From IMG/VR virus record IMGVR_UViG_3300036819_000070: 64,000 nt of DNA. One strand, given 5' to 3'. A program made the position numbers and the translations under genes. This stretch comes from a virus. Lineage: Duplodnaviria; Heunggongvirae; Uroviricota; Caudoviricetes. Numbering within the stretch: position 1 is the first letter of the stretch; every line of letters begins with the position of its first letter. This document shows positions 4,523 to 53,170 of the stretch, piece by piece. The notes under the pieces were generated by a model that worked only from the letters and a program-made list of their open reading frames with translations, was not told where the DNA came from and did not search any database.

Positions 4523-5470
4523 GTGATGAGCACTGCGACCGCAGTACGTAGCAAGCGACACCGCACCACCCGACCGGCGGCCAGTACCGACCGGCCTAGG
4601 TTCGATCCGTATCAAGAGGTGACCGATCAGATCATCGCGCTGTTGGAGTCCGGTACTGCACCGTGGCACAAGCCGTGGGATGCGGCTAACGGTGGCATGC
4701 CTAGGTCATTGTCTACCGGTAAGCCGTACCGGGGTATTAACCCGTTCCTCTTGCAGATGGCGGCTATTGCGCACGGGTACGCGTCGCCATGGTGGGCGAC
4801 TTACGACAATATCGCGTCGCGTGGTGGGCAAGTACGCAAGGGTGAGAAGGGCACCATGGTTATTTTCTGGAAGCAGTACGTCCGGAAAGCTACAGAAGTC
4901 GGCGAGGACGATAGGCCAGCTTTCGTGGCGCGTGCGTTCAAAGTGTTCAATACCGATCAAGCGGATGGTTTGACGTTGCCACCCATTGCGGAGCGGCCCG
5001 TTGATTCGGTTGATCCTATCGCGGCTTGTGATGCGGCTATCGCGGGTTATCTCGCGACCGGCCCGACGGTGCACCATGGTGGTAATCGCGCCTGCTATTG
5101 GCCAGATGCGGACACTATCAACATGCCAGAGCGGGACACGTTCGACGGTTCCGAAGAGTATTACGGGACGTTGTTTCACGAAAGCGTGCACAGCACGGGG
5201 CACAAAAAGCGTTTAGCGCGGCCCGACTTGCTCAATATGCACGCGTTCGGGGACGTGAGCTATAGCAAGGAAGAATTGGTCGCTGAGTTGGGGTCAGCAT
5301 TCCTGTCCGGTCATACCGGTATCACCGTCGTTACCCTGCCAAACTCAGCGGCGTATCTGGCCTCTTGGATTAAGGTATTGCGCGGTGATCATAAACTGCT
5401 AATCCAAGCGGCAGGGCAAGCACAAAAGGCAGCGGACCTAATCCTCGGCATTACCTACGATACCGAATAG
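4523..5470 (+). CDS. ArdC-like antirestriction protein (ssDNA-binding N-domain + zincin metalloprotease)
   Basis: N-terminal PWHKPW...GINPFLL region resembles ArdC-N/DUF1738; C-terminal HESVHSTGH (HExxHxxGH) zincin motif. Confidence 0.7.
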   Translation: MMSTATAVRSKRHRTTRPAASTDRPRFDPYQEVTDQIIALLESGTAPWHKPWDAANGGMPRSLSTGKPYRGINPFLLQMAAIAHGYASPWWATYDNIASRGGQVRKGEKGTMVIFWKQYVRKATEVGEDDRPAFVARAFKVFNTDQADGLTLPPIAERPVDSVDPIAACDAAIAGYLATGPTVHHGGNRACYWPDADTINMPERDTFDGSEEYYGTLFHESVHSTGHKKRLARPDLLNMHAFGDVSYSKEELVAELGSAFLSGHTGITVVTLPNSAAYLASWIKVLRGDHKLLIQAAGQAQKAADLILGITYDTE

Positions 5471-7124: not shown

Positions 7125-7319
7125 ATGGATAGGTCATTAAGCGATGACGCACGGGCGGTTATCGCGGGATTGATAGCAGACGGCAGTGAGCACGACATAA
7201 ACAAGGACGGCATTACGGCAAGCGACGCCGTGTGGTCAGAGATTCGGGAGGCATTCCCTATCGAACTATTTAGGGCCTGGTCGACCGATGACAATTACAA
7301 CCCGGATGCCGGGTACTAG
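7125..7319 (+). CDS. acidic hypothetical protein
   Basis: GGAGAACGATCACA-ATG RBS context. Confidence 0.45.
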   Translation: MDRSLSDDARAVIAGLIADGSEHDINKDGITASDAVWSEIREAFPIELFRAWSTDDNYNPDAGY

Positions 7320-7434: not shown

Positions 7435-7698
7435 ATGACCGGTAACGATGGCAATACTGACAACACCGAACGGGTGGAAGCTGCGCACGTCGCGCTTAGG
7501 GCGTTCGCTGGACACTGCGGGCCGGATGAATACGGCACCAATCTAGGCGACCCTGATGAGTTTCTCACCATTGCGGGTGACCTGATCGCTAACCTCTTGC
7601 ACGCTGCGGACGCGGTAGACGTTGACGCGGACACATTGCTAGGCCGCGCAATCCTGCACTACTCAGCGGAAAGCACGACGCCGTACGACTTGCCCTGA
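7435..7698 (+). CDS. acidic hypothetical protein
   Basis: 87-aa ORF with motif + GGAAGG RBS upstream. Confidence 0.5.
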   Translation: MTGNDGNTDNTERVEAAHVALRAFAGHCGPDEYGTNLGDPDEFLTIAGDLIANLLHAADAVDVDADTLLGRAILHYSAESTTPYDLP

Positions 7699-7732: not shown

Positions 7733-8074
7733 ATGGACGCTATCGACTTCCGCGAGGCTGGCCGCCAGGCGTACCTGGCTGGCGAACCGTCCGCGCCGTG
7801 GCTTAGCGCTGCGGTACGCGACGCCGTAGGCGCGTTGCCTGTAGGTGGTGGCGCGGCTGGCATCATGCGCGCCTACTCAGATGGGTGGCACGCGGCGAAC
7901 GCTGCCGCGCCGGTCGTTGGGGTGTGCACCATAGACGGGGTGACCCCGTGCCCTATGCATGCCGGTGCAGTGCACGTGCCGAACGGCGCGACGCTGGCAC
8001 AGTGCCTAGAGATGAGCAAGGCAGCGGCGAGGCAACCGCGCGTGCCGACGTTCACCGGGTGTAACGATGTGTGA
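7733..8074 (+). CDS. hypothetical protein
   Basis: 113-aa ORF; RBS AGGAAGGCTGGACAGT-ATG. Confidence 0.5.
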   Translation: MDAIDFREAGRQAYLAGEPSAPWLSAAVRDAVGALPVGGGAAGIMRAYSDGWHAANAAAPVVGVCTIDGVTPCPMHAGAVHVPNGATLAQCLEMSKAAARQPRVPTFTGCNDV

Positions 8075-8089
8075 GCTTTCCGTGACCGT

Positions 8090-8130
8090 CCCGTTTGCCC
8101 GCGCTATGCGGGCAGCGGGGCGGTTTTTTT
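8090..8130 (+). terminator. Rho-independent terminator (7-bp stem TGCCCGC/GCGGGCA + T7 run)
   Basis: CCCGTTTGCCCGCGCTATGCGGGCAGCGGGGCGGTTTTTTTG directly after stop of 7733..8074. Confidence 0.5.
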
Positions 8131-8132
8131 GT

Positions 8133-8273
8133 CTGTGGGTACCGCCATATGGGTGCGGTATCGCAGGACTGTCGCCCAGCGTTTGGGTACCGCCATCCGG
8201 GTGGTGCTATGGGCTACCACCCGTTTGCTACGAGCTGGGCTGGCCGGCGTTTGGGTACCGCCGAATGGGTGGT
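8133..8273. repeat. Three ~24-28-bp direct repeats GCGTTTGGGTACCGCC(A/G)(T/A)NNGGGTGGTG (iteron-like)
   Basis: Copies at 8133-8154, 8178-8205, 8246-8273, spaced ~45-68 bp, between terminator and next RBS; overlapping ORFs 8067..8285/8095..8328 show repeat-derived peptide periodicity. Confidence 0.5.
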
Positions 8274-8337
8274 GATTATCAGTGATCGTTCGGTCGCTGT
8301 CAGCCACTGCCCGCAATGTCCGTTATAGGAGGTTCGC

Positions 8338-8805
8338 ATGAGCAAATCGGACACACCGGACAGAAGGGACGGACACCCCAGAGGGGACAGAAGGGACGGA
8401 CCGGACCAACGGGACGGAAGGGACGTACCGGGCAAAAGCGGCAAACGCCGCATTTCGCCCGAACCGCTCATTTCGCTCGATTCGTGGTGGCCGGGCGACG
8501 TGATCGGTTTGCCGGCCGAACCGCCGGCCGGGACGGAGCTGGAGGTGCGCGGCGGCGATCATAACGGGCGCCGGATCCAGCGCGGCGACGGCGGCTGGTC
8601 GGCGGGCGACGGTACGTGGTTTGGCGTTTTCCGCACGGTGGGGCCGGGGTCGGTGCCCGGTGTGACGTTCGTGGTGACTAAGGCGCCTACGCGGTGCGCT
8701 GGCTGCGACCGGTGGTTCGTTGGTCCTGCTCAGCAGCATTACCACGATGACAATTGTCGGCGCCGGTCGTCAAGAACACGCCATGGGCAACACCCGAAAA
8801 ACTAA
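8338..8805 (+). CDS. hypothetical protein with N-terminal RRDG-type repeats and Cys/His C-terminus
   Basis: GGAGG RBS before ATG; N-terminus encoded by tandem GGGACAGAAGGGACGGAC repeats (8352-8430); CAGCDRW...HYHDDNC. Confidence 0.5.
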   Translation: MSKSDTPDRRDGHPRGDRRDGPDQRDGRDVPGKSGKRRISPEPLISLDSWWPGDVIGLPAEPPAGTELEVRGGDHNGRRIQRGDGGWSAGDGTWFGVFRTVGPGSVPGVTFVVTKAPTRCAGCDRWFVGPAQQHYHDDNCRRRSSRTRHGQHPKN

Positions 8806-9044
8806 AGCATGCTTATTGTGCGCAGGAAAAGCATGCTTATTGGTACGCAGGAAAAAAAGCATGCTTTATGTTCGCGGTGGCTTGTGCTGGCAATCGCACC
8901 ATGTGTAGCCCCGGCAAAGGTCGTGGGTGTCGGATTCACACGCGTCGCAGACGAAGTTCAGGAAAAGCATGCTTTGTTTACTCCCCTGCCGAAAAGCATG
9001 CTTATTTGGCGCAGCAAAGCATGCTTATTTTGTTTTTTGGGGTG

Positions 9045-9116
9045 CGACTCTGACGGGATTCGAACCCGCGCCTTCCACCTTGACAAGGTGGCGCTCTCCC
9101 GTTGAGCTACAGAGCC
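9045..9116 (-). tRNA. tRNA-Asp (anticodon GTC)
   Basis: Minus-strand cloverleaf: acceptor GGCTCTG/CAGAGTC, D arm GCTC-AACGGGA-GAGC, anticodon stem CCACC/GGTGG loop TTGTCAA, T arm GCGGG-TTCGAAT-CCCGT, discriminator G, no encoded CCA. Confidence 0.75.
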
Positions 9117-9125
9117 AAAGCATGC

Positions 9126-9323
9126 TTATTCGGTGGCGTCTTCTGCTCGGCTGCCTTGCCACGCTGAAAAGTGCCCGGCGATGTTAGCCCACACGGACAT
9201 CAGCACGATCCACTTAATCGACTGGCTCCACCATAGCAGCGACGGAATCAGCAACAGCACCCACATGGTGGTGAGGGTCGCATGGACGTGACGCCACGTC
9301 CTGGCCTTCGGGACACTGAGCAT
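9126..9323 (-). CDS. small membrane protein, uncertain
   Basis: 65-aa ORF with hydrophobic core; its ATG is the centre of palindrome copy at 9319-9327. Confidence 0.25.
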   Translation of the reverse strand: MLSVPKARTWRHVHATLTTMWVLLLIPSLLWWSQSIKWIVLMSVWANIAGHFSAWQGSRAEDATE

Positions 9324-9406
9324 GCTTAGGCCTTTCGCTCAAAGCATGCTTTTGTTTGGCGGGGGAACCTACCGCGCTGGGCAGGTTCCCCCGGTTGCCC
9401 CGCGTC

Positions 9407-9598
9407 TTAGAGGATAGGGCCGGACAGGATGGGGCCGGGCCCGAGGTCGAGAACGGTCGCACAGTTAGCGATGTTCACCGAATGGGGCTGGGAGCAGCCA
9501 CCGTAGGTGTTGTTGTCGGCGAACGCTGCACCACTGCCGGCGAGGAGCAGGCCGGCGGCCAGTGCCGCAGTGCCGAATACCGCTGTGAGCTTGCGCAT
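9407..9598 (-). CDS. small secreted protein (signal peptide)
   Basis: Internal Met MRKLTAVFGTAALAAGLLLAGSGAAFA signal-like N-terminus; ORF 9407..9727. Confidence 0.45.
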   Translation of the reverse strand: MRKLTAVFGTAALAAGLLLAGSGAAFADNNTYGGCSQPHSVNIANCATVLDLGPGPILSGPIL

Positions 9599-9644
9599 CT
9601 GTTGTTCGTTTCCCTTCGTAGGTGGCCTCAGACTGCCGGGTGGG

Positions 9645-9791
9645 TTACTGCACCACCCACAGCACGAAGCCCAAGACCAGGAAGATAACGCCCAGTTCTG
9701 CCACCGCAGGATAGCGGGGCGAGGCAACGGGCATCATCGTGGTAACGGCGGTGAGGAAAACGCCGATGGTCAAACAGATCGTGGCGAGCAT
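9645..9791 (-). CDS. small hydrophobic peptide (48 aa), unlisted ORF
   Basis: MLATICLTIGVFLTAVTTMMP...; ATG 2 nt after stop of upstream small ORF. Confidence 0.3.
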   Translation of the reverse strand: MLATICLTIGVFLTAVTTMMPVASPRYPAVAELGVIFLVLGFVLWVVQ

Positions 9792-9793
9792 CC

Positions 9794-9904
9794 TTAGTGG
9801 ATGAACAGCAGGTAGGCGAGCCCTATGACAAGGTCAGCGGCGATCACGAACGTGAGTGCTGCCAGCGTTGCGATGCCTAACGCCAGGCCTGTGAGTCTCA
9901 CCAT
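9794..9904 (-). CDS. small hydrophobic peptide (36 aa), unlisted ORF
   Basis: MVRLTGLALGIATLAALTFVIAADLVIGLAYLLFIH; single TM helix. Confidence 0.3.
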   Translation of the reverse strand: MVRLTGLALGIATLAALTFVIAADLVIGLAYLLFIH

Positions 9905-9958
9905 GAAACGTAGAACGACCCGCCCCCGACGGTGGTGGTGGTCAGAAGGCGGGCCGTT

Positions 9959-10855
9959 TCACCCAAGGAGCCGGTGTCCAGTGGAGGGGACGGATACCGG
10001 CATCGACTCGGGCAAACTTTTCGGATCTTGCCGCACCGTATCCGGCGGATTCGGTTCCCGCAACTCCGTTACGGGCGCTTTGCTTTGGTGCTGGTAGCGG
10101 TTCCCCAACGCGGTGAGGACGTCACGGATCCGGTACAGGGGTGGGATGGTGTCGGGTACGGGCGCTAATCGGCCGCGCCGGACGTAGCCTCGGATCGTTT
10201 CGTAGGTGCATTTCATGCCGGTGGTTTGGAGGAATCCGGCGATCTCAACGGCGGTTCCGAGGTGGTCTTGGGCGATGTCGTGGAGCCACGCTTGACGCAC
10301 GGCGATGTCGTGTCGGGTACCGCATTGGGGGCAGGTCGCGTGGGTGTTCCACGGGACACCGTAGACCTCGTATCGGCAGTACAGGCCGGGGCTGAGTTCG
10401 GTGGCGCACGGGCCGAGGAACTGTCGGCGGTCGTCGGGCCGGTCGATGGCGTGGCGCGCGGCGTGGATGGCGATGGTGATCTCGTCAACGAGCTGGCCGG
10501 CGTCGGCGTGGACCCGGATCCGGGCGAGGTTGGCGACGAGCCAGCGGGCGACGTCGGCGGTGGGTACCGGCCGCGCGAAGTGGGCAGGGTTGAAGTCGTG
10601 GGCCCAGCTGGTGAGGGTGTGGTGGAGGATCCACGCGACTTCGGGGATGTGGGTTTTGAACGGCAGCGGGTTCTCACCGGAGCCGGGGCCGTTGCTGTAG
10701 GGCTTGCCTAGTTGGTCTTGCCGCGAGTAGGTGATTTCGAGGTTGCGTACCAGCGAGGGGACGTCAACGAGTTCGATGCGCAGGCCGATGGTGCAGTCGT
10801 TGCACAACACGACGATGCCACCGGCGGGCGCGCGGCACTTGACGCAGTACTTCAC
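9959..10855 (-). CDS. Zn-ribbon-containing hypothetical protein (possible DNA-binding)
   Basis: N-terminal CVKC...CNDC and C-terminal CPQC; basic GYVRRGRL segment. Confidence 0.55.
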   Translation of the reverse strand: MKYCVKCRAPAGGIVVLCNDCTIGLRIELVDVPSLVRNLEITYSRQDQLGKPYSNGPGSGENPLPFKTHIPEVAWILHHTLTSWAHDFNPAHFARPVPTADVARWLVANLARIRVHADAGQLVDEITIAIHAARHAIDRPDDRRQFLGPCATELSPGLYCRYEVYGVPWNTHATCPQCGTRHDIAVRQAWLHDIAQDHLGTAVEIAGFLQTTGMKCTYETIRGYVRRGRLAPVPDTIPPLYRIRDVLTALGNRYQHQSKAPVTELREPNPPDTVRQDPKSLPESMPVSVPSTGHRLLG

Positions 10856-11176
10856 GGCGCGTTGCCGCCCAGGTCGTCACCTGCGGGGCCGGCGCTGCGT
10901 TGCTGGTGCCAGCGGCGCAGGATCGCCCAGGCGGACTCAGCGGCGCGCTGGGCCTCAGCGTGGGGGGTTTGGGTGCCTTCGACGCAGAGCACGACGTGGC
11001 CGGGGGCTAGGCAGTGGGGTGGGGGGTCGGCGATGACGCACCAATCGGTGCCGGCTGTGGGGCCGCTCGCGACGTGGTAGGTGGGGGTGATTCCGGTGGT
11101 ACTGCCTGATCGGGGCATACCGGACATACGCCCCAGCGTAGGCCCCTTAGGGGGCGACGCTAAAAGGTGGCAACAA

Positions 11177-11221
11177 AAGCATGCTTTTTGGGCCGGGAAA
11201 GGGGACGGGAAAAGCATGCTT
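11177..11221. promoter_or_regulatory. Two more AAGCATGCTT palindromes (11177-11186, 11212-11221), 35 bp apart
   Basis: Exact 10-mers with AAAA/TTTT flanks in the intergenic gap between minus-strand genes. Confidence 0.5.
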
Positions 11222-11283
11222 GTTGGGTTGGCTACCCAACCGCTAAACCGGTCGGGGGTTGTCGCGGTTGGGTAGCCCGAGCG

Positions 11284-11748
11284 TTACTCTACCGGTTCGT
11301 CGGGTTCCGCACCTTGGAGATCTAGGGCGTGGTAGCGGATGGCCATAGCTGGGTATTCCTCACCGGAGCGGTGCTTCTGTCGGTCTTCTGCGGTGTCGGG
11401 GCACTGCACCAGGAATTGGACTTTGTGTCCGTTGCCGAGGGGTTCGTCGCACCCTAAACAGATCACGTTGTAGGCCGGGTGGTCGGGTTTCAACGGTGGT
11501 TCTACTGGGCCTTCGCGGGGCTGGCCGCGTGACCATAGGACGTAGCCGATGCTGGCCGGCGAGGCTGCGTCTCGGTGCTCTGCGTCCGGTTCGATGGTGA
11601 TCCGGAACCGTCCGGTCGCGAAGGCCGGTTGGACGGTCATCACGCTGGTGGTATTGCCGTGTTCCATTCGGGGGTCGAACCCGGCGGCTTTAAGTGCCGC
11701 CGCGACTTCCCGGGCAACGGTGTTGCTTTCATCGTCAACGTCAGTCAA
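11284..11748 (-). CDS. hypothetical protein
   Basis: 154-aa ORF without obvious antisense partner. Confidence 0.5.
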   Translation of the reverse strand: MTDVDDESNTVAREVAAALKAAGFDPRMEHGNTTSVMTVQPAFATGRFRITIEPDAEHRDAASPASIGYVLWSRGQPREGPVEPPLKPDHPAYNVICLGCDEPLGNGHKVQFLVQCPDTAEDRQKHRSGEEYPAMAIRYHALDLQGAEPDEPVE

Positions 11749-11801
11749 GTCGTACTACTCCCCGTTTCCTTCAATTCCAATATGGGCTGACTGAATCGAA
11801 T

Positions 11802-11892
11802 GGTGGAACGGGCCCATACACCCTGCTTCCACCGCACACGTTCGCCCGGTTTTAGGTCAGTGGAACGGGCCCATAACACCCTGCTTCCACCC
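11802..11892. repeat. Two direct copies of a ~33-bp stem-loop (GGTGGAAC-N17-GTTCCACC)
   Basis: GGTGGAACGGGCCCATACACCCTGCTTCCACC at 11802-11833 and GTGGAACGGGCCCATAACACCCTGCTTCCACCC at 11860-11892. Confidence 0.45.
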
Positions 11893-12055
11893 GCGTGTTT
11901 TCCGTTTTCAGTTGTCGTCCTGGGCGCTATACGTTTCACCTTCGTTCCGGTCGGCGTGGTGACTGCTCATACAGATCGCTAGACCGGTGGGCAGACCGAA
12001 CATGAATCCGAGTGCGAGTCCGGTCCACACGTTCCACATCATCAGCATCGGGCTA

Positions 12056-13065: not shown

Positions 13066-13569
13066 TTAGACGGCGCTGAACGTTGGCACGTCTACGCGTA
13101 CCTCGCCGCCGTGGTGCTCGTGCTCGTGCTGCTCGTGCTGCGGGGGTTGGTTGGTGCTGCCGTCGGTGGACCCGTTCTGTGAGGCGGTGCTAGAGGTGCT
13201 GGAGCTGGTGGAGCTGGAGCTGCCCTCGTTAGCGTCCTTCCACGCGGCGAGGACGTTGACGGGGATCCGTCCACGGTCGGACACGGGGTAGCCATTTTCT
13301 CGAGCCCACTGCTTGATCCGGCGGTTCTGCTCCCGGTTGGCGGCGAGTTCCGCAGCGTCGGCCTTGCGCGCGGCGCTGCGGGTGGCGGGGGTGTCGATGG
13401 CCTTGCGGGCTGCCGAGACGTACTCGGCCAGCGCTTCATCGAGCTGGCGGGCGTTGTCGTCGGTCAAGTCGATCTCATAGGACACGCCGTCGAGCCCGAA
13501 CTTCTTGAGCTTCGCGCCGGAAGCGCCGCTGAGGTCATCGAGGGTGACGACGGTTTCTTTCCTAGCCAT
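13066..13569 (-). CDS. lsr2: Lsr2-like nucleoid-associated protein
   Basis: Internal Met with GGAGAG RBS; N-terminal dimerisation-like region; C-terminal IKQWARENGYPVSDRGRIPVNVLAAW matches Lsr2 DNA-binding RGR motif. Confidence 0.8.
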   Translation of the reverse strand: MARKETVVTLDDLSGASGAKLKKFGLDGVSYEIDLTDDNARQLDEALAEYVSAARKAIDTPATRSAARKADAAELAANREQNRRIKQWARENGYPVSDRGRIPVNVLAAWKDANEGSSSSTSSSTSSTASQNGSTDGSTNQPPQHEQHEHEHHGGEVRVDVPTFSAV

Positions 13570-13748
13570 GTTGTTGATCTCTCCAAATGTTCCGAGGGGT
13601 TGTATCGCGAATAGACGATCGCACGTTACAGCGCATGTGACAGGAGACAAGTCGGTGACCCAGTGCGTGGGTCACTCGACTTGATCTCGACTTCGCTGCG
13701 CAGTTGCTTATCACCGCTAAGGACGTAAGGGATCATCCTTTCAGGTGA

Positions 13749-14847: not shown

Positions 14848-15087
14848 TCACTTGTTTTCCATGTTTTCCATGGAGAGCACGCTGAGCATCACGGCACGGT
14901 TTTTGGCATCCCACAGTTCGTTGAGCGCGGTGGTCAGTAGCTGGTCGTCGGGGAGCATCCCGATGAGTGTTTCGGCCAGCGCGGCGAACAGCGCGGACAC
15001 GTGCTGCAACTCCACGGGCAGGTGGTCGTAGCGGAACAAACGCATCGCGGCGATGGTGGCACGGTGACGCCCAGTCAAATCAATCAT
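14848..15087 (-). CDS. hypothetical protein
   Basis: 79-aa ORF in the minus-strand gene run. Confidence 0.35.
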   Translation of the reverse strand: MIDLTGRHRATIAAMRLFRYDHLPVELQHVSALFAALAETLIGMLPDDQLLTTALNELWDAKNRAVMLSVLSMENMENK

Positions 15088-23551: not shown

Positions 23552-24199
23552 TCATTTGGTCGCGTCGGCGCGCTGCTGGTCGGTGAATACGGCTTCCTGG
23601 CCGGATGCGGCTACGGCGACGTAGGAACTCAGTGAGCTGGTCGCTGAGCGGGTACCGGAATCGGTGGCGGCGTAGGTCATTGTTTGGCCCGACCTGACCC
23701 CTAGGGACGCGCCGACCGCGATGGCGTCTTGGTTGGCGCCGAGGTACACAACCTGCCAACCGAACTCGCGTTCGTGGCGTTGCACCATCGCTTTGATCTC
23801 AGGAAAGGTGTGCTCGTGTGACGCATTTTCTTTCCCGTCCGTCATGATCGCAAGGATCACCGTGCCGGGGCGCTGGTGTTCGGGAAGCGCCGCGAGTTCC
23901 GCACCGAACTCGGCAATGGAACGGCCCATCGCGTCGAGTAGCGCGGTGCTACCGCGTGGGCTCAGCTGAAACGGTGGGATGCTCGCCGGGTCGGTGGACT
24001 CGCACACCGTCTGGTAGCCGTCGTAGTGCGGGTAGGAGTCACTATCGAACTGGGCTATCCGGATGGTGCGCCGGCCGTCGGCGTTCACCTGGTCCTTGAT
24101 GAATCCGTTGATGCCCTCCTCAGCGGCTTCACGGATCAAGTCCATGGAACCGCTACGGTCGATTAACAGCATGATCGCCGCGTAATTCGGGTCTGTCAT
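23552..24199 (-). CDS. von Willebrand factor A (vWA) domain protein
   Basis: MLLIDRSGSMD MIDAS-type motif; GGAGGGAAACAA RBS; ATGA overlap with RecT stop. Confidence 0.65.
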   Translation of the reverse strand: MTDPNYAAIMLLIDRSGSMDLIREAAEEGINGFIKDQVNADGRRTIRIAQFDSDSYPHYDGYQTVCESTDPASIPPFQLSPRGSTALLDAMGRSIAEFGAELAALPEHQRPGTVILAIMTDGKENASHEHTFPEIKAMVQRHEREFGWQVVYLGANQDAIAVGASLGVRSGQTMTYAATDSGTRSATSSLSSYVAVAASGQEAVFTDQQRADATK

Positions 24200-25329
24200 T
24201 TGTTTCCCTCCGTGGAAGCGAGGTCGGCCAGGGTGTGCGTCAAAGTGCCACCGTCTTTGCACCGTTGTAGGAAGTCGTTGATCGTGTCGACGTCGCTCGC
24301 GGTGAGCTGGTCGAATGACGTCACTGGCTCAGCGGGTGGCCGGTTAAGAATCCGGCCGGCTATGCGCAATCGCACCTCACGGTCGGATCCGTTGACTCCA
24401 CCGTCGCGCAGCAATGCGAATAAGCGGTTTGTCTGCGACTTCTCAGGGGCGGCAGGTTCGGCACCGCCGCTCTCATCGACCACGCACGCATTGACCTTGA
24501 CCTGTTCAGCTGAGGCTTTCTCGGTTGCGGCTTTGACGCGTGCGCCAGCCGAGGCGATGCGATCGAGTAGGGGCACGTCGTTGGGCCGCAGGCCCCGCGC
24601 GAGATCCCAAATCTTTTTCAGCTCGGGACGGTCGTTGCGTCCTTCGGCGTCTTTGATCAGCGCATCCCAGTCGGGTTCAGCGGGTCGTTCCCGTTCGGAT
24701 TCGATGATCGTGGGTTGTGGGTTGTTCAGGTGTTCCATTTCGTCGTCTGTGTAAATGTTGGACAGGTCTTGCGGGAACAGCCGGCGGCGAGCGAGGGCCT
24801 CAGCGCATTTCGCGAGCTGCCCGGCGGCTTTCGTCTTCCACATTTTCGTGGGTTCGCCGTCGTATTTGGTTTGGACGTATTCGCGGTAGTGCGCGATGGC
24901 ACGGACGGGGTAGGTGTGGTCTTTGCGTTTGACGGTGAATCGGGCGGCGACGGGTGGGTTGTCGTCATCGGCCCACATTTCTTTCCACACGCCGTCGGGG
25001 CCGCACCATTCAGCGGCGGGGTCGCCTTCCCCGTCGTAGCGCTTATCCCTTTCGCAGAACAGTCTGAATCCGTCGATGCCAGTCTGGATCGTCCATTTTT
25101 TTCCGGTGGGTGAGTCCCGGTCGTTGCGGGCGATGAGGTAAATCTGTCGGGCGAAGGGATCCAAACCGACGCGTTGCGCGACGTGCAAAAAGACTTGCTG
25201 GTCGCCGGGGGGTGCGTCAGCGATTCCGATCTGGTCGAGCGCGGCGCGCTGCGCTGGTGTCCAGTCGATTTGGTCACCGCGCAGCGCCAGGGTGCCGCTG
25301 GAGGTGGTGGCCAGTTCTGTTCCGGTCAC
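24196..25329 (-). CDS. recT: RecT-family ssDNA-annealing protein
   Basis: LHVAQRVGLDPFARQIYLI and following blocks resemble the RecT family; adjacent YqaJ-like exonuclease. Confidence 0.75.
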   Translation of the reverse strand: MTGTELATTSSGTLALRGDQIDWTPAQRAALDQIGIADAPPGDQQVFLHVAQRVGLDPFARQIYLIARNDRDSPTGKKWTIQTGIDGFRLFCERDKRYDGEGDPAAEWCGPDGVWKEMWADDDNPPVAARFTVKRKDHTYPVRAIAHYREYVQTKYDGEPTKMWKTKAAGQLAKCAEALARRRLFPQDLSNIYTDDEMEHLNNPQPTIIESERERPAEPDWDALIKDAEGRNDRPELKKIWDLARGLRPNDVPLLDRIASAGARVKAATEKASAEQVKVNACVVDESGGAEPAAPEKSQTNRLFALLRDGGVNGSDREVRLRIAGRILNRPPAEPVTSFDQLTASDVDTINDFLQRCKDGGTLTHTLADLASTEGNK

Positions 25330-25619
25330 GCGACACGCTCATATGACTGTGCGTGCATGTCGGCGGTCACGGGGTAGGGGTCACCGTCGGCGTCTAACGC
25401 GATGTATCCGTGCCATCCTTCGGGCACTTTGTATTCGCCTTCTTTGGTGGCCACGGTGAACGGGCCACTGACAGGCGCCATGCGGGTGGTGCCGACCTTG
25501 CGGTATTCGGCCCAGCCAACGGGGGGCAGGTTGTCTTTGTCGTAGTCGCTCACGCCTGTTCCCAACCTTTCACGATATGAATCCGGCGTGAGCTGCTGCG
25601 CCGAATGTAGGCATCCCAA
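25326..25619 (-). CDS. hypothetical protein
   Basis: 97-aa ORF between exonuclease and RecT; 5' end overlaps exonuclease 3' end by ~70 nt. Confidence 0.35.
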   Translation of the reverse strand: MGCLHSAQQLTPDSYRERLGTGVSDYDKDNLPPVGWAEYRKVGTTRMAPVSGPFTVATKEGEYKVPEGWHGYIALDADGDPYPVTADMHAQSYERVA

Positions 25620-26563
25620 ATGTCCGGGTGGTCGAACTCCAATGCTTTGTCGACTGCCGGGTTGTTGAGTTGGCTTTTGAACGTGACTACCGGGCGGGGG
25701 CCCAGTAGCAGTGCTTCGTGCTCGCCGGCCATGACCCGGAGGGCTTTGTCGATTTCAGCGGCGCGGTCCTTAGCGGCCTTCTCAGCGGCTTTCAGTTCGG
25801 CGCGTTCGATCAGCATTTGCCGTAGGTACGCGGGCCATTCCGCTTCGACGGCGGTGCCGGGTTGCGCGGTCGGCCACCGCAACGAGATCTCCTCATCGGT
25901 GATGGTGTCCAAATCCACCGGCGGTGGTGTGTCGGTGTCGATGTAGGAGTCCCACCACACGTGGGCGCGTTTCCGCATCCGGTCGATCAATGCGTCGTCG
26001 CGTTCCACCGGTCCACGGATTTGTGGTTCCTGGTCAATGGTGTAGGCCGCGAACCACACGTGGGTGCGGCCAGTGACCATGAGCTGCCATTGACCTTGGA
26101 CGTAGGCGTGGCGGGCGATGCCGCCGTGGCGCCATTCCGCGCCGACTTTCGCCCACGACCCGATGGTTTTCACCTCAAGGCAGCCCCCGTCAGCGGTCAA
26201 TCTGTCGGGGGTGGCCCGGAGGATCGGTGTTTCTTTGTGTTCGACCAGGCCGCAGCGCCGGACCACGAGCTTTGTTTGCTCGGAAAAGAACTCGACTACG
26301 TGCGGTTCCAACCAGTTGCCGCGCCGCATCGCTTCGGTTTGTTCCTGGTGTTCCGCGCGCCCCGTTTTGTCAAGCCATAGCTCGTATTCGCTGCCGTATT
26401 CCGATACCCCCATCAGGAGCGCGACGTCGGACGATCCGATTCCTTTGCGGCGTTCGTCAAGCCACTGATCGCGGGGTGCGTCAGCGCCCAGTACCAGTTG
26501 CCCGGTGGGCATTGACCACGGGTTGACTGGTTTGATTTCCGACCATGGACGGTGACCGGTCAT
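25550..26563 (-). CDS. YqaJ/lambda-Exo-like (PD-(D/E)XK) recombination exonuclease
   Basis: GIGSSDVALLMGVSEYGSEYELWLDKTG...EHKETPILRATPDRL...LEVKT typical of YqaJ viral recombinase exonucleases. Confidence 0.7.
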   Translation of the reverse strand: MTGHRPWSEIKPVNPWSMPTGQLVLGADAPRDQWLDERRKGIGSSDVALLMGVSEYGSEYELWLDKTGRAEHQEQTEAMRRGNWLEPHVVEFFSEQTKLVVRRCGLVEHKETPILRATPDRLTADGGCLEVKTIGSWAKVGAEWRHGGIARHAYVQGQWQLMVTGRTHVWFAAYTIDQEPQIRGPVERDDALIDRMRKRAHVWWDSYIDTDTPPPVDLDTITDEEISLRWPTAQPGTAVEAEWPAYLRQMLIERAELKAAEKAAKDRAAEIDKALRVMAGEHEALLLGPRPVVTFKSQLNNPAVDKALEFDHPDIWDAYIRRSSSRRIHIVKGWEQA

Positions 26564-27477: not shown

Positions 27478-28344
27478 TCACGCTGATCCGCCCCATTCGG
27501 GAAGCCGGTTCGTGATCCGGCGCTTGTTATGCAAATTGACTAAAATCTCGGCCATTGCGTCTGAGATCCGGCCACCGCGAATGTCACGCAGTTGCTTTGC
27601 CTTGCCGATCAGACCCAGCGGGCCGCCTTCGTGTTTGCCCAGTTCGGTGACGACTTTCGCGACGTCGAGGCGCGGGTATTGACGCAGGAGCACACCTAAA
27701 CCGGAGACGATTTCGGCGCGCAACGCATTACTGTCGTGGCCCCACGCGGCGGTCGCGAGCTTGACCAACGCGTCGCAGGTCGCGAGGTCACGTCCCTCTT
27801 TCGGCGCCCGGTACACCCGCTCTAATGCGCTGACAGCGAAAAACGATCCTTTCGCTTGGGCTTTGCGGATGGTCCAGCCGTGGGATTCGAGCATCGCGGC
27901 CAGTTCGCAGGCAACGGGATCGCCTTCCACAATCCGGACCCGGAATCTATCGAGTATCTGTACTTGGCGGGTGTTGTTCAAACGGCGGAACATCGCCGCT
28001 TCCTCAGCGCGTGTCAGGCCAGTCCACAGGACACAGGCCACGGGAATGTCCCCTCGGCCGATGACGTGAACAGCGGAAATGCGGTGCTGGCCGTCGATGA
28101 TGTGGTGCGTTCCGTCGGGTCGTTCGGAAACGTGGATCACGCCCAACGCCTCACGCTCAAAGTCGGCGGCGATACCAGCGACCCGAACCGAATCGAGGGG
28201 CCGTTGCACGCTTTGGTCGACGGTGAGCAGCGCCGGCTCAATCTGGGTGATGGTGAACGTCGCCCTACTTGACGGTGGTTTCACACCTTCGAGATCGTGG
28301 GTCCGCACCGGCGGCGGGGTTTTAGTGGGGGTTGCGGTAGTCAT
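27478..28344 (-). CDS. ParB-like nuclease-domain protein 1
   Basis: HHIIDGQHRISAV ParB/Srx N-domain motif; 288 aa. Confidence 0.7.
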   Translation of the reverse strand: MTTATPTKTPPPVRTHDLEGVKPPSSRATFTITQIEPALLTVDQSVQRPLDSVRVAGIAADFEREALGVIHVSERPDGTHHIIDGQHRISAVHVIGRGDIPVACVLWTGLTRAEEAAMFRRLNNTRQVQILDRFRVRIVEGDPVACELAAMLESHGWTIRKAQAKGSFFAVSALERVYRAPKEGRDLATCDALVKLATAAWGHDSNALRAEIVSGLGVLLRQYPRLDVAKVVTELGKHEGGPLGLIGKAKQLRDIRGGRISDAMAEILVNLHNKRRITNRLPEWGGSA

Positions 28345-29198
28345 CAGCTAAGCTCCTTGCGTTCCTTCAAGAGGGCCATGAGTTGTCGGAGACTCTTTGC
28401 TCGCCGGGATAGGTCCGCCCTCCACTGGGCGGCCTGTTCTGGTGTTATGGCGGGGTCGAGCCCATCCGCTGAGGCCAGGACCATTGCCAGGCCATCGAGG
28501 CTGTTCCCTAGCAGCCGTAATGCGGGTTCTTGGACGAACCGGTATCGGGCTTCGCGCTTACTAATTGACGCGTCTGGCGCTGGCGGTGAATCGTCACCGC
28601 GCCATCCGGGGCGCGCTATTTGCCGTGGTACACCACCGGCTCTGATTCGTTCGACAAACTTGTCTTGCTGCTCGGTGGACAATCCGGCGACGCGGGCAGC
28701 GGTGGTCAGGGGCACGTCACCGGCGGCGGTGATCGCTCTTAGTCCTGCGGTACCGGTCCGGACAACCCGCTTCGCGCGGCCCATTGAGCCGATGGAGATT
28801 TCGAACGCTCTTTGGATTTGTCGTGCCGTTGGTGGTTTCAGCGCGGGGGGTTGCTCGGCCATCCGGGCGGCGACCATTGACCGCGCGTTGTTGGTGGCCA
28901 ACTTCCAGCCGTGCGCGGTGATCGCGAATAGCCACGGGTCGGCGCTGTAGGCCGCGAATCGGGGTTTCACACCGGCCTCATGGCACGCCCGGTATCGGGT
29001 GCGACCGTCGAGGATCGCGCCGAACGGGGTGCGCACGATGGGCCGTTGCAAACCGTTGGTTTTGATGTCCGCTACCAGCGCCGCGTACTTCGCGCTGGTG
29101 GGCCGCATCAGGGGGAACAGGTCAGCGGCGGGATGCACGCGGTGAGCAATGTCGTCGCCCGACGACGCCGGCACCGGTAGCGCGGTCAGGAGGGTCAT
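28344..29198 (-). CDS. ParB-like nuclease-domain protein 2
   Basis: Internal Met MTLLTAL; GAILDGRTRYRACHEAG ParB-like motif; N-terminal 150 codons of ORF 28344..29648 are Arg-rich and lie over downstream genes; ATGA coupling. Confidence 0.6.
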   Translation of the reverse strand: MTLLTALPVPASSGDDIAHRVHPAADLFPLMRPTSAKYAALVADIKTNGLQRPIVRTPFGAILDGRTRYRACHEAGVKPRFAAYSADPWLFAITAHGWKLATNNARSMVAARMAEQPPALKPPTARQIQRAFEISIGSMGRAKRVVRTGTAGLRAITAAGDVPLTTAARVAGLSTEQQDKFVERIRAGGVPRQIARPGWRGDDSPPAPDASISKREARYRFVQEPALRLLGNSLDGLAMVLASADGLDPAITPEQAAQWRADLSRRAKSLRQLMALLKERKELS

Positions 29199-29479
29199 AT
29201 CGCCCGCACCACCAGGTAGGTAAGTGCGGCCAACGCGACGATCGCGCCGCCACCGATCAGCAGCATCGCCAGGACCACGGTGACGGCACCGATGACTAGG
29301 GCCAGCGCCATGCCCAGGGCGGCGCCCATTCCGACGGTCGCGGCGAGCAACGCGAGCGCGGCGGCGATAGCGGAACCGGGTTCGGTGACCGGCTCGGGTG
29401 GCATCTCTTCCAGCGGACCGATGGTCTTGATCCACTGCTCGAAACGCGGGTCGTCGTCGGGTGCTAGTTGCTTTCCCAT
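29195..29479 (-). CDS. membrane protein
   Basis: Internal Met MGKQLAPDDD; C-terminal half is two hydrophobic helices. Confidence 0.45.
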   Translation of the reverse strand: MGKQLAPDDDPRFEQWIKTIGPLEEMPPEPVTEPGSAIAAALALLAATVGMGAALGMALALVIGAVTVVLAMLLIGGGAIVALAALTYLVVRAI

Positions 29480-29904
29480 CACGCACCCACCCGCGCCAGC
29501 TCGGCGATGGTGCGGAGGTACGCGGCGGTGGTGGTCCACGCGCGTTCCTCGGGAACCGGCGGCGTGCCCAGCGAGGCGAGTAGCGCGGTGCGGGCGGTGT
29601 CGTAACAGCTGCCCTCAACGATGATCTCCAGCGGCGGTGCCGTCGCAAACGCGGTGGCGGTCCCGGACACCGTCAAAAACGTGATCCGCTTGTCTTGGTC
29701 GGGATCAGTGACGTCGATCGTCGCGTCGGTCAGCGCGTCGGCGACGTCAGCTGCGGCGGTCAACGCATCGAATAAGCCGGCTGGGGAACACAACTCAGCG
29801 GAGGAGTCGTCCGCGTAGTGCACGTAGGCGATGGGCAGGTTCGGGTGGCACGTCAGCCAGTTGAGGAGTCGCGCGAGTCCGCTGCGAAAAGTTGTGTCGG
29901 GCAT
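29479..29904 (-). CDS. hypothetical protein
   Basis: 141-aa ORF; stop shares a nucleotide with the downstream ATG. Confidence 0.45.
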   Translation of the reverse strand: MPDTTFRSGLARLLNWLTCHPNLPIAYVHYADDSSAELCSPAGLFDALTAAADVADALTDATIDVTDPDQDKRITFLTVSGTATAFATAPPLEIIVEGSCYDTARTALLASLGTPPVPEERAWTTTAAYLRTIAELARVGA

Positions 29905-30711: not shown

Positions 30712-31272
30712 GTGATGAGGATCAGCGACGTGGCACCACCTGATGACGAACTAGACGCTCAGAAGCCAACAGCCTCAGGGACCGGACATCTACGGGCGCT
30801 GCTACGTGACGCCGGGGTCGGCTCCAAATGGAGCACTCGGGAACTCGCCCAAGGTGGGCTAGGGCACATGACGTGGTACCGGCTAATCAAAGACGGGAAG
30901 CTCTACCTGCCCGATTGGGATACCCTCCCAGTCATCGCGCAGACCTTACGCGACCATGGCGCGGTTATCGATGGCACCGCTATCACATTACAGCAGATTC
31001 GGCAAGCCTATCTGCTCGATAAGGGTAAATCTCGCTCAACTGGGTACGACACGTTAAAGTCCGGCGCGGCGCAAGCCGATGTAATGGTTGGTGTGATAGC
31101 GAACCTGCCGCCAGCGAGCCAACTCCAGCTCATGGAAGACCTGGCGCCGTTCCTTCCCCAACCGCTCCAGCTCAAGTTGTTGCACACCCTCGCCGCCCTG
31201 GTGGCGGGGGAGACAGTTGAAAAGCGCGAAGGGAAACGGGATGACGACGACGGACCTGATCTACGTCCGTAA
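30712..31272 (+). CDS. immunity-repressor candidate (HTH)
   Basis: 186 aa; WSTRELAQGGLGHMTWYRLIKDGK HTH-like; divergent from the Cro-like gene across ~200-bp region containing inverted AGTTCTAC/GTAGAACT. Confidence 0.4.
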   Translation: MMRISDVAPPDDELDAQKPTASGTGHLRALLRDAGVGSKWSTRELAQGGLGHMTWYRLIKDGKLYLPDWDTLPVIAQTLRDHGAVIDGTAITLQQIRQAYLLDKGKSRSTGYDTLKSGAAQADVMVGVIANLPPASQLQLMEDLAPFLPQPLQLKLLHTLAALVAGETVEKREGKRDDDDGPDLRP

Positions 31273-34036: not shown

Positions 34037-35239
34037 TCATGCAGTCCGCTTCTTTTTTTGGACACCTCTCTTAGCTGCCGCGAGAGCCACAACATTGTTG
34101 GCGGTGGCGATGGCGGACAACCCGTCAGCGATGGCCTGATCCTGTTGCTGTGCCTTGTGCTGGTAGCGCAGCGCGGCAGCGAACGTGGTGTGCCCGAGCC
34201 GGTTCATCAGATCCTTAAGCGGTGCGCCCATGGACGCGGCCAGCGTGGCGCTGGTGTGCCGTAGATCGTGGAACCGTAGGTCAGGGCGACCGGCCGCCTC
34301 GCGGGCCCGCCACCAGTGCACACGCAGCGACGACTCGCACATGTGCTTGACACCGTCGGCGCCGGGGAACAACAGGCCCTCATCACCGGGGGCGGCGTGC
34401 TCATCGATGTGCGCCACGATCGCGGGAACAACGTGCGGTGGGATCGACACGACCCGGCGGCTGCCGGCCGTTTTCGGTTCCTTGATGACCCGGCCGTCGG
34501 CGCTGCACCACACCACGCTGCGACGGATCCGCAACCAACCGCCCCGGTTGTCTTCGTCAAGCTCGCGTAGGTCAACGTCCTTACGGCGTAGCTCAGCGAG
34601 TTCACCGAACCGGGGTCCGCACCACGCGGCCAGCAACACCGCTAGCTGGTACTTACTGGGCATGGCCTCGACCATGGTCACCAGCTCGTCCACCGTGGCG
34701 GGCTCGGTGTCGATGGCGCGTTTCGCTTGACCAGCACCATGGATCCGGCACGGGTTCACTGCGATCAACTCGTCATCGACGGCAGTGTTGAGGACGGTTC
34801 TCAACAGCGCGTAGGCGTGCGCTTTGGCCGTCTTCCCCGTCTTGAGCCGGGCGTGCCAGGTGCGGACCTTCGCGGCGGTCAACTCGGGCAGCGGGGTGTC
34901 ATCGAAGCTCGGGTAAATGTGGTTGCGCAACAGCGCGGCGTACAGCTCACGGGTCAAGATCCCGAGGTCCCGTTCAGCTAGCCATGCGTCGGCGAACTCG
35001 CGCACCGTCAACGGGGTCGCCGCGTTGGGCTTCCACTTTTCCCGTGTGATCTCTGAGTGCCGCAGCGACAACCACACGTCGCCATCGGTGCGCGTCTCGA
35101 AAGTCAGGGACCGACCGGCGTTGTCCTGAGCTGAGTAGGTGCGCCCGTCAGGGCCGGTGTATCTGGCTTGGAAACGACCGGACGGCAACTTACGGACGTT
35201 GCCGAATGTCCGCTTCTCTTTGGTCGGTTTCCTGGCCAT
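34037..35239 (-). CDS. int: tyrosine integrase (site-specific recombinase)
   Basis: C-terminal HDLRHTSATLAASMGAPLKDLMNRLGHTTFAAALRYQH (R..H..R..Y box); likely start MARKPTKEKRTFGNVRKL; first 93 codons of ORF 34037..35518 are Pro/Thr-rich and overlap gene 35280..35750. Confidence 0.9.
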   Translation of the reverse strand: MARKPTKEKRTFGNVRKLPSGRFQARYTGPDGRTYSAQDNAGRSLTFETRTDGDVWLSLRHSEITREKWKPNAATPLTVREFADAWLAERDLGILTRELYAALLRNHIYPSFDDTPLPELTAAKVRTWHARLKTGKTAKAHAYALLRTVLNTAVDDELIAVNPCRIHGAGQAKRAIDTEPATVDELVTMVEAMPSKYQLAVLLAAWCGPRFGELAELRRKDVDLRELDEDNRGGWLRIRRSVVWCSADGRVIKEPKTAGSRRVVSIPPHVVPAIVAHIDEHAAPGDEGLLFPGADGVKHMCESSLRVHWWRAREAAGRPDLRFHDLRHTSATLAASMGAPLKDLMNRLGHTTFAAALRYQHKAQQQDQAIADGLSAIATANNVVALAAAKRGVQKKKRTA

Positions 35240-35279
35240 CAGCTTGTCGCCTTTCGTTCGGTCACGACGGTCGGGTAGG

Positions 35280-35750
35280 TCACGGGAGCATGCGGTCTGG
35301 GCCTTGGTAGGCCAGTGCCACGGGGTAGGTGATGGTGCGACGGTTGACGGGGTTAAGCCGCCCCGAGTCGATGATGGTGTACCCAGCGGCCCGTAGTTCG
35401 CGGTGCATGTTCGCGTCGGCGGTTGCCGGGTCGTCGTCGGCCGGGTAGCCGATGATCTCGACTTCACCGTCAATTTCCATGGTGCGGATCCGGATGCGGG
35501 CGGTGCCGTGGTCGTCAAGATCCTCAGGGTCGACTTCGGCGTAGAAAGCCGGCGCAGGATGAGTCAGGTCCCCGCTGTGATCCCGGCCGTCGTGCTGGCC
35601 GGCGATGTCCAGCGCGCTGGGCTTACCGGCGGTCTGTTCGTCGGCGCTGCGGGCCGCCACGAACTTTTCGAAGTCGCCGCAGCGGCACTCAAGGTAGAAG
35701 CCCGACGGGTGCGGGAAGACGGTCACCCGGTGCTCGATCGACTCGGTCAT
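35280..35750 (-). CDS. hypothetical protein
   Basis: 156-aa ORF immediately upstream of int in the same operon. Confidence 0.45.
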   Translation of the reverse strand: MTESIEHRVTVFPHPSGFYLECRCGDFEKFVAARSADEQTAGKPSALDIAGQHDGRDHSGDLTHPAPAFYAEVDPEDLDDHGTARIRIRTMEIDGEVEIIGYPADDDPATADANMHRELRAAGYTIIDSGRLNPVNRRTITYPVALAYQGPDRMLP

Positions 35751-53151: not shown

Positions 53152-53170
53152 TGTCACACGTCGTGTGACA
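53152..53170. promoter_or_regulatory. 19-bp perfect palindrome TGTCACACGTCGTGTGACA (operator candidate)
   Basis: ~40 bp upstream of HTH gene 53209; second imperfect IR TGTACACACC..GGGTGTACG at 53189-53215; half-site TGTGACACGT recurs at 33700-33709. Confidence 0.5.

Follow-up and report, generated by a model that had tools for sequence, protein, structure and literature searches.

Clustered copies of a 10-bp palindrome at gene borders in a temperate actinobacteriophage-like element: candidate operator or roadblock sites

INTRODUCTION

The stoperators of Cluster A phages, described with the repressors of L5 (gp71), Bxb1 and TipsytheTRex, are asymmetric 13-bp sites that are distributed genome-wide and bound by a monomeric two-domain repressor (PMC6550527, PMC9283540), and they lie mainly in one orientation relative to transcription (PMC6550527). 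The PeSL elements of T4-type phages, which measure about 50–60 bp, combine a strong sigma-70 promoter with a terminator hairpin (PMC2839356, PMC4122927). In this study, we examined a perfect 10-bp palindrome, AAGCATGCTT, which is clustered in 64,000 nucleotides of the Caudoviricetes record IMGVR_UViG_3300036819_000070; this whole stretch, 64 kb of a 94-kb metagenomic source contig, is referred to below as the window and is part of a temperate actinobacteriophage-like element. An earlier note on this DNA had described nine copies in 550 bp around a tRNA-Asp gene and had proposed that they are sites for a dimeric DNA-binding protein, forming either a repressor operator cluster or a set of parS-like centromere sites. 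The cluster is real, non-random and conserved, and as to kind it would belong with operon-internal operator/roadblock repeats.

Dispersed palindromic sites of 13–16 bp that affect transcription are also known from the KorB operators (OB) of RK2, from the parS sites of ParB and from the centromere repeats of prophage N15. At the RNA level, the RNase III sites of T7 early mRNA and the processing stems of rRNA are imperfect hairpins of 20 bp or more, each with an individual sequence. No relevant result came from a search of the literature for phage operators with the 10-mer or its core.

RESULTS

Clustering of the palindrome

The exact 10-mer occurs ten times in the window, where 0.04 ± 0.20 copies are expected from dinucleotide-preserving shuffles, and none of 100 shuffled windows contained ten copies or more. 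All of them lie within 8805–11221 (2.4 kb; Table 1), and the remaining ~61 kb of the 64-kb window is free of exact copies. The SphI core GCATGC is not enriched, with 24 occurrences across the window against 29 expected and 13 outside the arrays against 15.3 expected (Markov estimate), and because of this the cluster cannot be put down to base composition or to a restriction site, the bias that the earlier note had named as a threat to its proposal; the shuffles and the unenriched core together rule out chance or composition as its source. The nine copies in 550 bp resolve into eight exact copies and one near-exact copy in 8804–9351, so that the clustering was seen correctly while the pair at 11177 and 11212 was missed. 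The tRNA-Asp is bracketed by the copies 9118–9127, 1 nt from its 5′ end, and 9017–9026, 17 nt from its 3′ end (9027–9043), and these distances replace the 2 and 19 nt given before. The ATG of the small membrane-protein open reading frame (ORF; 9323 to 9126) is, as had been stated, the centre of a copy (9318–9327), with a Shine–Dalgarno (SD) sequence preceding it, and the long overlapping ORFs that appear to run through the array are indeed artefacts.

Conservation and loss in relatives

Relatives, designated here by L numbers, were reached through homologues of the 298-aa protein encoded at 9959–10855. Four syntenic metagenomic relatives, whose neighbouring proteins are mostly ~40–70% identical to those of the window, have kept the exact 10-mer (L121, ten copies; L125, nine; L139, six; L123, five), and the absence of conservation that would have spoken against the earlier proposal is therefore not what is seen, L121 and L125 in particular retaining exact copies. 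In the alignments the motif columns are invariant, whereas spacers and flanks diverge. The pair at 11177/11212 lies upstream of the genes at 10852–11130 and 9959–10855, and one of its copies is kept in L139. Some copies are isolated, with kilobases to the next one (L121 7691, L125 3197).

Other relatives have the gene order of the window yet lack the motif. In the syntenic L140 no exact copy is found and decayed remnants, AGGCATGCTT and AGGCATTCTT, lie upstream of an HNH gene, while its convergent junction holds a different repeat system (CAAGATCG...). In L143/L276 the palindrome is absent and two GC-rich hairpins occupy the convergent junction instead; it is likewise absent from L138, L141 and L142. 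This all-or-none loss, accompanied by decay, would be expected if the sites require a partner that acts in trans. Where the junction arrays sit, relatives keep terminator-type hairpins.

Several further repeats were observed in the same set of contigs. The junction of L140 (13898–14619) contains a duplicated segment of ~226 bp densely filled with CAAGATCG(A/T) / CGATCTTG repeats, possibly an alternative set of sites in the same role. A GC-rich hairpin, GGGG(G)AACCT...AGGTTCCCC(C), is present once in the window (9358–9394) and twice in L143 (4340–4450) and is probably a conserved terminator module. In the more distant relatives L138 and L142, (AA)GACACGGAGGCA is repeated four to eight times per 16–21 kb locus; it contains GGAGG and may be a start-associated sequence that includes an SD.

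Placement at gene borders

Placement and flanks were determined for 40 copies, namely the ten exact copies of the window and 30 in L121, L125, L123 and L139. When contexts and called genes were read by eye, 39 of the 40 proved to be intergenic or to overlap only a stop or start codon, the sole exception being L121 12522, which is near the 3′ end of a gene. At least nine of the 40 provide the TAA of the upstream gene, and in the window and the four relatives the downstream start codons follow at 17–23 nt with an SD in between; since gaps of this size are too small for a promoter and a leader, the copies are located inside polycistronic units. Read along the gene strand, the flank consensus of these 40 sites is the asymmetric A-A-(T/A)-AAGCATGCTT-T-(G/T/A). 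In the direction of the genes, all 40 copies, including those stacked at the junction, are preceded by AAW and followed by T; the orientation of a copy is defined by these flanks alone, the core itself being symmetric.

Genes are on the minus strand from about 33.6 kb down to 9.0 kb and on the plus strand at 0.1–8.8 kb, and because the two blocks meet at 8805–9043 this interval is a convergent junction, which is filled by six copies (3+3). Along the minus strand the order is the 106-aa secreted-protein gene, the GC-rich hairpin, copy 9342, the 65-aa ORF, tRNA-Asp and copies 9017, 8994 and 8965, followed by the 34-codon ORF and then copies 8829 and 8805.

No terminator-like site was scored in 8000–12000, and none overlaps the array, which bears out the earlier view that the unit is too short and loopless for a terminator: a single palindrome allows a stem of at most 5 bp, which is AU-rich, and the form of an intrinsic terminator (GC-rich stem, 3–8-nt loop, U tract) is not found in the palindromes. 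No sigma-70-like promoter overlaps the array, and sigma-70 promoters are not enriched at the arrays of the window, of L094 or of L057. The idea of a translation-frame element, in which one copy supplies an ATG and the next a TAA, was discarded, as the spacings between copies have no clear mod-3 bias.

Table 1. Palindrome copies, neighbouring features and genes that place the window in context
Feature	Position	Strand	Remarks
Exact copies of AAGCATGCTT, a 10-bp perfect palindrome	8805, 8829, 8857, 8965, 8994, 9017, 9118, 9342, 11177, 11212		10 copies
Degenerate copy GAGCATGCTT	9318-9327		1 mismatch; holds start codon of 65-aa ORF
Triplet B, three exact copies	8805-8814, 8829-8838, 8857-8866		last copy overlaps TAA of 34-codon minus-strand ORF
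Triplet A, three exact copies	8965-8974, 8994-9003, 9017-9026		between tRNA-Asp and micro-ORF
Single copy	9118-9127		between tRNA 5′ end (base 9117 apart) and 65-aa ORF; overlaps TAA of that ORF
Copy upstream of 65-aa ORF	9342-9351		18 nt upstream of ORF start codon; just downstream of GC-rich hairpin
Pair of exact copies, 35 bp apart	11177-11186, 11212-11221		gap between 11284-11748 and 10852-11130 / 9959-10855
Plus-strand gene abutting the array	8338-8805	plus	TAA overlapped by copy 8805-8814
34-codon Cys-rich micro-ORF MLFLNFVCDACESDTHDLCRGYTWCDCQHKPPRT	8866-8970	minus	cassette bracketed by palindromes
tRNA-Asp(GTC)	9044-9116	minus	ARAGORN; Rfam 69.9 bits
65-aa membrane-protein ORF	9126-9323	minus	phrog_24082, E 2e-9; homologues in L139, L123
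GC-rich hairpin GGGGGAACCT...AGGTTCCCCC	9358-9394		after 106-aa secreted-protein gene; probably a terminator-type stem
106-aa secreted-protein gene	9407-9727	minus	
ArdC	4523-5470		
Lsr2	13066-13650		
RecT + RecE	24196-26563		
Tyrosine integrase	34037-35518		

Small cassettes between the copies

The 34-codon micro-ORF at the junction uses one copy as its start, its ATG being the centre of 8965–8974, and its TAA overlaps 8857–8866. It is preceded by an SD-like GGGGAG, and its protein carries a CxxC...C...CxC pattern. At the DNA level it is ~90% conserved with L121 and L125 (about 90–95% with L121), and its protein in the window shares 100% identity with that of L121, against 40–60% for neighbouring genes. 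It is absent from L139, L123 and L140, has no PHROG family, and appears to be a recently exchanged micro-cassette. A small RNA in the conserved 98-nt segment was considered and rejected, since the segment is the 34-codon ORF with its SD, has no Rfam match and folds unremarkably; the folding energies of the tested segments are not unusual (z −1.5 and −1.0). When the segments between copies were scanned with Rfam only tRNA-Asp passed, all other matches having E > 1.

Two close comparisons bear on the borders of such cassettes. In the 298-aa protein L139 is 97.6% identical to the window, and it has three copies after the tRNA as against six in the window and is without the micro-ORF cassette; in L121, an HNH endonuclease cassette lies between copies. 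These differences indicate that the repeats lie at the edges of units subject to gain, loss and exchange.

A second recent mosaic exchange, in this case without palindrome flanks, is indicated by an 87-aa protein (7435–7698, plus strand, phrog_3963), which is 96.5% identical to its L121 homologue while the surrounding genes are at about 40–60%.

The same palindrome in other phages

Taking three copies 10–30 bp apart as an array, we found AAGCATGCTT triples in 21 IMG/VR viral contigs, 108 metagenome contigs and nine contigs of GTDB genomes, as compared with one, none and three IMG/VR viral contigs for the control palindromes AAGCTAGCTT, AACGTACGTT and TTGCATGCAA, respectively. About a third to 40% of the metagenome matches and most of the GTDB matches consist of a whole unit repeated in tandem, in which the 10-mer is simply included, and these were left out of the sequence logo. 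The variable-spacer arrays are found in contigs of 30–66% GC in which the palindrome alone is conserved, and their spacing peaks at 24–25 bp (range cited 23–33 bp). The logo over 241 sites from these other lineages is a symmetric dyad of 14–16 bp, (a/g)AAAAGCATGCTTTTt, which is the form expected for a dimer. The AAAA/TTTT flanks of the earlier note apply only in part to the window lineage, whose 40 sites have the asymmetric flanks A-A-(T/A)/T; the symmetric form is that of the arrays in other lineages.

Arrays are located upstream of, beside or within genes for primases/helicases of no fewer than four unrelated types (AAA_25, DUF3987/NrS-1-like, PrimPol-VapE and DEAD helicase), at convergent junctions (L094, L095, L101) and near HNH–terminase modules (L129, L095, L130/L151). 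HNH endonuclease genes adjoin arrays in at least six lineages, including L130/L151, L132, L133, L135, L101 and L121. In L070 and L047/L085 copies are within coding sequence, a position that is hard to reconcile with a role in RNA processing. The array locus of L094 has no distant DNA match, and the L070 helicase gave only weak protein matches.

A scan of IMG/VR for pairs, defined as two copies 10–30 bp apart, gave at least 120 loci, and among the 120 pair-bearing loci listed a cro-like gene (YdaS type) is present in 75 and a cI-like gene in 72. In the Pseudomonas-phage-like L001, two cAAGCATGCTTg sites spaced by 23 bp occupy the intergenic region of a divergent cro-like and cI-like gene pair; because this is the classical arrangement of an operator OR, the palindrome is here at a place where helix-turn-helix (HTH) dimers bind. 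Both the cro-like and the cI-like proteins have a helix of the type ...(T/S)YEAVRQW..., which in the cro-like form is the recognition helix and reads ...TYEAVRQW.... As an observation in its own right, the cAAGCATGCTTg pair with a 59-aa cro-like gene and a cI-like gene, at 5822–5913 in L001, recurs in ~75 similar IMG/VR loci, and this L001-type pair is a probable, uncharacterised OR operator set.

Two other settings of the 10-mer were noted. In L265 (1170–1260) three copies with 27-bp spacing lie directly upstream of a Prim-Pol-like gene, and each spacer holds TGGTATGAA, an extended −10-like sequence; other genes of L265 share the upstream motif TTGACAGC...GGAGGGCAA, and a phrog_1761 protein homologous to the one encoded at 14848–15087 in the window is found just upstream. 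In L148, a Rubritalea metagenome-assembled genome, the 10-mer is inside a 29-bp satellite of 27 copies (260–1810), and in L146, L152 and L154 (Sorangium, Azoarcus and Chloroflexota contigs) it is inside tandem units of 19–24 bp; these tandem-repeat occurrences are a phenomenon distinct from the variable-spacer arrays.

Regulators and candidate binders encoded in the window

The HTH candidates that had been put forward (30712–31272; 14848–15087, near 15091; 53154–53480, near 53209) have no DNA-binding Pfam match, and the PHROG search on them led to phrog_1761, a family of unknown function. Three other protein groups were set aside: GcrA-like proteins are present in nine array loci and recur within one large array-phage group, and are not in the window; HNH endonucleases are adjacent to the sites in L121, L130, L132, L133, L135 and L101 and absent from the window, L139, L123 and L125; and Lsr2 is present in motif-less relatives too. 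In a presence/absence profile over nine relatives only an acidic 64-aa protein (7125–7319), an implausible DNA binder, tracks the motif. No cognate repressor was found among the window proteins.

The window also encodes, at 50468–52116 and with no palindrome nearby, a 486-aa HTH_31 + DUF5753 protein with an N-terminal extension of ~200 aa, and Pfam detected a DUF397 protein among its ORFs as well; the two are a WhiJ/Scr1-like regulator pair typical of actinobacteria. The window has no megablast match to close cultured relatives in phage or plasmid collections. Over positions 1–64000 several GC-rich 6-bp palindromes are strongly avoided relative to Markov expectation (CCGCGG, 1 against 49.5; CCCGGG, 2 against 22.6; GAGCTC, 3 against 16.1; CTCGAG, 3 against 13.5; CTGCAG, 0 against 4.8), a pattern that resembles restriction-site avoidance and may be a hint at the restriction–modification systems of the host.

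DISCUSSION

In this study, we revisited a cluster of palindromes that had been noticed around a tRNA gene, and the reading that we favour, tentatively and as a possibility rather than a settled assignment, is that the copies are operator or roadblock sites for a putative dimeric DNA-binding protein, that they would be used in a stoperator-like manner and that they would double as boundaries at which small cassettes recombine. The copies are clustered non-randomly, the 10-mer is conserved against diverging flanks, and it has been lost or has decayed in syntenic relatives; close relatives differ in copy number and cassettes, and elsewhere the palindrome has an operator-type placement. A protein site at the DNA level is favoured because every copy is an identical and perfect dyad that is conserved against diverging spacers and lost as a set, and because the same sequence takes the place of a cI/cro operator elsewhere and is found inside coding regions of other lineages. 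The dimeric DNA-binding site, the core of the earlier proposal, accordingly stands as its best-supported part, given a 10-mer conserved against variable spacers and the pair between cro and cI genes in other phages. The operator-cluster version of that proposal, read as an immunity switch, is not supported, as the copies mark the ends of genes and the junction of converging blocks rather than a divergent promoter or an immunity region, and the binder is a putative one.

According to the favoured reading, the binder would be encoded by the phage or, less likely, be a host factor. Its proposed sites lie at the borders of genes in the promoter-distal stretch of the leftward (minus-strand) operon, with 3+3 of them stacked where the converging plus-strand block meets it. 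Once bound, they would function as operators or roadblocks, in the manner of the Cluster A mycobacteriophage stoperators, and would damp or insulate transcription across the tRNA-Asp, 65-aa membrane ORF and 34-codon ORF cassettes, while bound arrays would stop converging transcription at a junction that has no terminator hairpin itself. Incidentally to this role, identical repeats could serve as break-and-join points, through which small cassettes would be gained, lost and exchanged among related phages. Both the binding of a protein and the block to transcription by such binding are steps that we infer.

A number of observations weigh against this reading. A search for the binding protein was negative, and each of four candidates had to be set aside. 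The first is the 298-aa Zn-ribbon/HTH-like protein (9959–10855), which has homologues in five motif-less loci and whose putative recognition helix is identical in the motif-bearing L121 and the motif-less L140 and different in the window; the second is the family encoded at 8338–8805, which abuts the array and also occurs in the motif-less L143/L276. The third, the ParB-like protein 28344–29648, has five homologue loci (L156, L159–L162) without a copy within 10 kb, and the fourth, the YdaS/Cro and cI family known from the Pseudomonas-type contigs, is found neither in the window nor in the array lineages. Nor does any protein of the window have homologues that extend over many of the lineages with arrays. 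The sites are at the distal end of an operon and have no recognisable promoter or immunity region, their distribution was seen in 64 kb of a 94-kb contig and not genome-wide, any two copies can pair in RNA, and the asymmetry of the flanks could stem from stop codons and SD sequences and not from binding.

The recurrence of arrays points to an undescribed and widely shared protein–DNA recognition pair, and a bolder version of the idea is that AAAAGCATGCTTTT is the site of one widely disseminated putative DNA-binding module, or of a conserved host factor, that punctuates unrelated phage genomes across phyla (GC 30–66%). The sites would then mark the borders of early, replication and accessory cassettes, act as stops at junctions and provide universal joints for micro-cassettes such as tRNAs, HNH genes and tiny ORFs, so that the palindrome would be a cross-lineage 'boundary code' and not a lineage-specific operator. 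We regard this as doubtful, although not out of reach.

A different view is that marking recombination boundaries is the primary function, with repeats that mediate gain, loss and exchange of small cassettes, as PeSL motifs do in T4-type phages or boundary sequences in lambdoid ones, and with regulation as a secondary matter; exchange could be homologous or driven by microhomology through RecE/RecT, or be carried out by a site-specific enzyme. We consider this unlikely as the primary function, and the same applies to any of these routes. The tRNA, the 65-aa ORF, the 34-codon ORF and the HNH gene of L121 are each bracketed by copies, the close relative L139 differs from the window by such a cassette together with three of six copies after the tRNA, and the complete protein identity of the micro-ORF between the window and L121, against 40–60% for its neighbours, suggests recent transfer. 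Mobile HNH genes abut arrays in at least six lineages, the window encodes RecT and RecE (24196–26563), and PeSLs behave likewise (PMC2839356). However, homologous exchange would hardly be efficient over a repeat as short as 10–16 bp, the promoter and terminator stem that characterise PeSLs were not found here, and recombination alone leaves the perfect palindromy, the strict conservation of the 10-mer and its all-or-none loss in L140 and L143 unexplained. A role in recombination is better taken as a consequence of the repeats, in which form it is compatible with the operator/roadblock reading.

The copies might instead act in RNA, where two of them would pair into a helix of 10–12 bp. Copies on either side of the tRNA or of a micro-ORF would enclose it in a processing stem for RNase III, and neighbouring copies would give an attenuating or terminating hairpin at the convergent junction. 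Each unit is its own reverse complement, so that any two copies in one transcript can pair, and in the RNAfold structures the 3+3 copies enclose the 34-codon ORF in nested pairings, with adjacent copies also paired within each array. The tight bracketing of tRNA-Asp (1 and 17 nt), the position of copies exactly at cistron borders with start codons inside two of them, the RNA-type GC hairpins at the junction of L143 and a flank orientation that follows the direction of transcription are all in agreement with such a role. However, stems require complementarity only, and one identical sequence throughout a genome would make pairing promiscuous; nor is there a reason for one sequence to be shared by unrelated phages of 30–66% GC. 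The isolated copies L121 7691 and L125 3197 have no nearby partner, the stems would be AU-rich with loops of 8–19 nt and weak U tracts and were not scored as terminator-like, the folding energies given above (z −1.5, −1.0) are ordinary, and the coding-region copies of other lineages do not fit. A primary function in RNA is in our judgement distinctly unlikely.

Centromere-like or nucleoprotein-assembly sites of the ParB/KorB/SopB type, with secondary effects on transcription, would share the form of these sites, that is, a palindrome of 14–16 bp with AT-rich arms and a GC-containing core that occurs in dispersed copies and in clusters. The window also encodes a protein (28344–29648) whose N-terminal region is ParB-like and which has an HTH; a homologue of it is encoded 1.5 kb from the arrays of the unrelated contig L094. 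However, only L094/L131 have both a ParB-like homologue and the palindrome, the five homologue loci L156 and L159–L162 have no copy within 10 kb, Pfam recognised no ParB domain in 28344–29648, and no ParA-, ParM- or TubZ-type family is present among the Pfam matches of 80 window ORFs; with its integrase, the element would not require a partition system. The parS version of the earlier proposal is thus not borne out, and we hold a centromere-type role to be improbable. Least probable of all, and hardly to be expected, are replication-origin iterons or recognition repeats for terminase (cos/pac), which would account for the iteron-like spacing of 23–33 bp and for arrays of other lineages beside or inside primase/helicase genes or near HNH–terminase modules, but not for copies that extend over 2.4 kb in the window and 5–9 kb in L121 and L125 at many gene borders and not at one locus, with no replication initiator, primase or terminase near the copies in the window and its relatives, nor for one iteron sequence shared by unrelated initiator families. 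Both the centromere and the origin readings agree with the form of the sites, but the dispersal of the copies and the genes present in the window do not suit them.

If a protein does bind, as the operator/roadblock reading proposes, the palindrome would be a second and mechanistically different case, palindromic and of the dimer type, of operon-internal repressor sites in actinobacteriophages, and would represent a compact and portable roadblock or insulator module. The occurrence of the same palindrome in arrays of more than 100 unrelated uncultivated viral contigs was unexpected, in view of the near absence of the control palindromes. In addition, the borders of the micro-cassettes (tRNA, 34-codon ORF, 65-aa ORF, HNH gene) match one repeated sequence, which makes the mosaic evolution of accessory genes directly testable.

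When the locus is set beside the known systems, the RNA elements of T7 and of rRNA resemble it in being placed exactly at cistron borders and in that complementary flanks can enclose a stable RNA, here tRNA-Asp, but they do not consist of one identical 10-bp palindrome shared with unrelated phages. Iteron origins differ in forming a single-locus cluster beside an initiator gene, which is not found here. The sites of KorB, ParB and N15 have in common with the present ones the AT-rich arms and about ten dispersed intergenic copies; unlike those systems, the element integrates, the search for a ParA partner was negative, and the motif is not accompanied elsewhere by the ParB-like candidate. PeSLs are similar in that short motifs flank small, variable and mostly ORFan genes and that insertions and deletions between close relatives fall between copies, but the unit described here is 10–16 bp long and has no detected promoter or hairpin. 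With the lambda-type OR the link is the same 10-mer, paired at 23 bp between divergent cro-like and cI-like genes in L001-type contigs; the window, however, has no divergent cI/cro pair at its sites and lacks that HTH family, and in place of two or three sites it has 11 copies, at gene ends and at a convergent junction, without an overlapping sigma-70 promoter.

The closest parallel is with the stoperators. They share with the present sites the many copies of one short sequence in an actinobacteriophage, the location in short intergenic gaps or at stop and start codons within operons, one predominant orientation and a proposed block to elongation and not to initiation only. They differ in that the core described here is a perfect 10-bp palindrome, which suggests a dimer, and that the window has no megablast match to Cluster A phages. 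Within the 64 kb covered, all copies fall into 2.4 kb and no cognate repressor was found. By analogy, the palindrome system would work like stoperators without being a member of that system.

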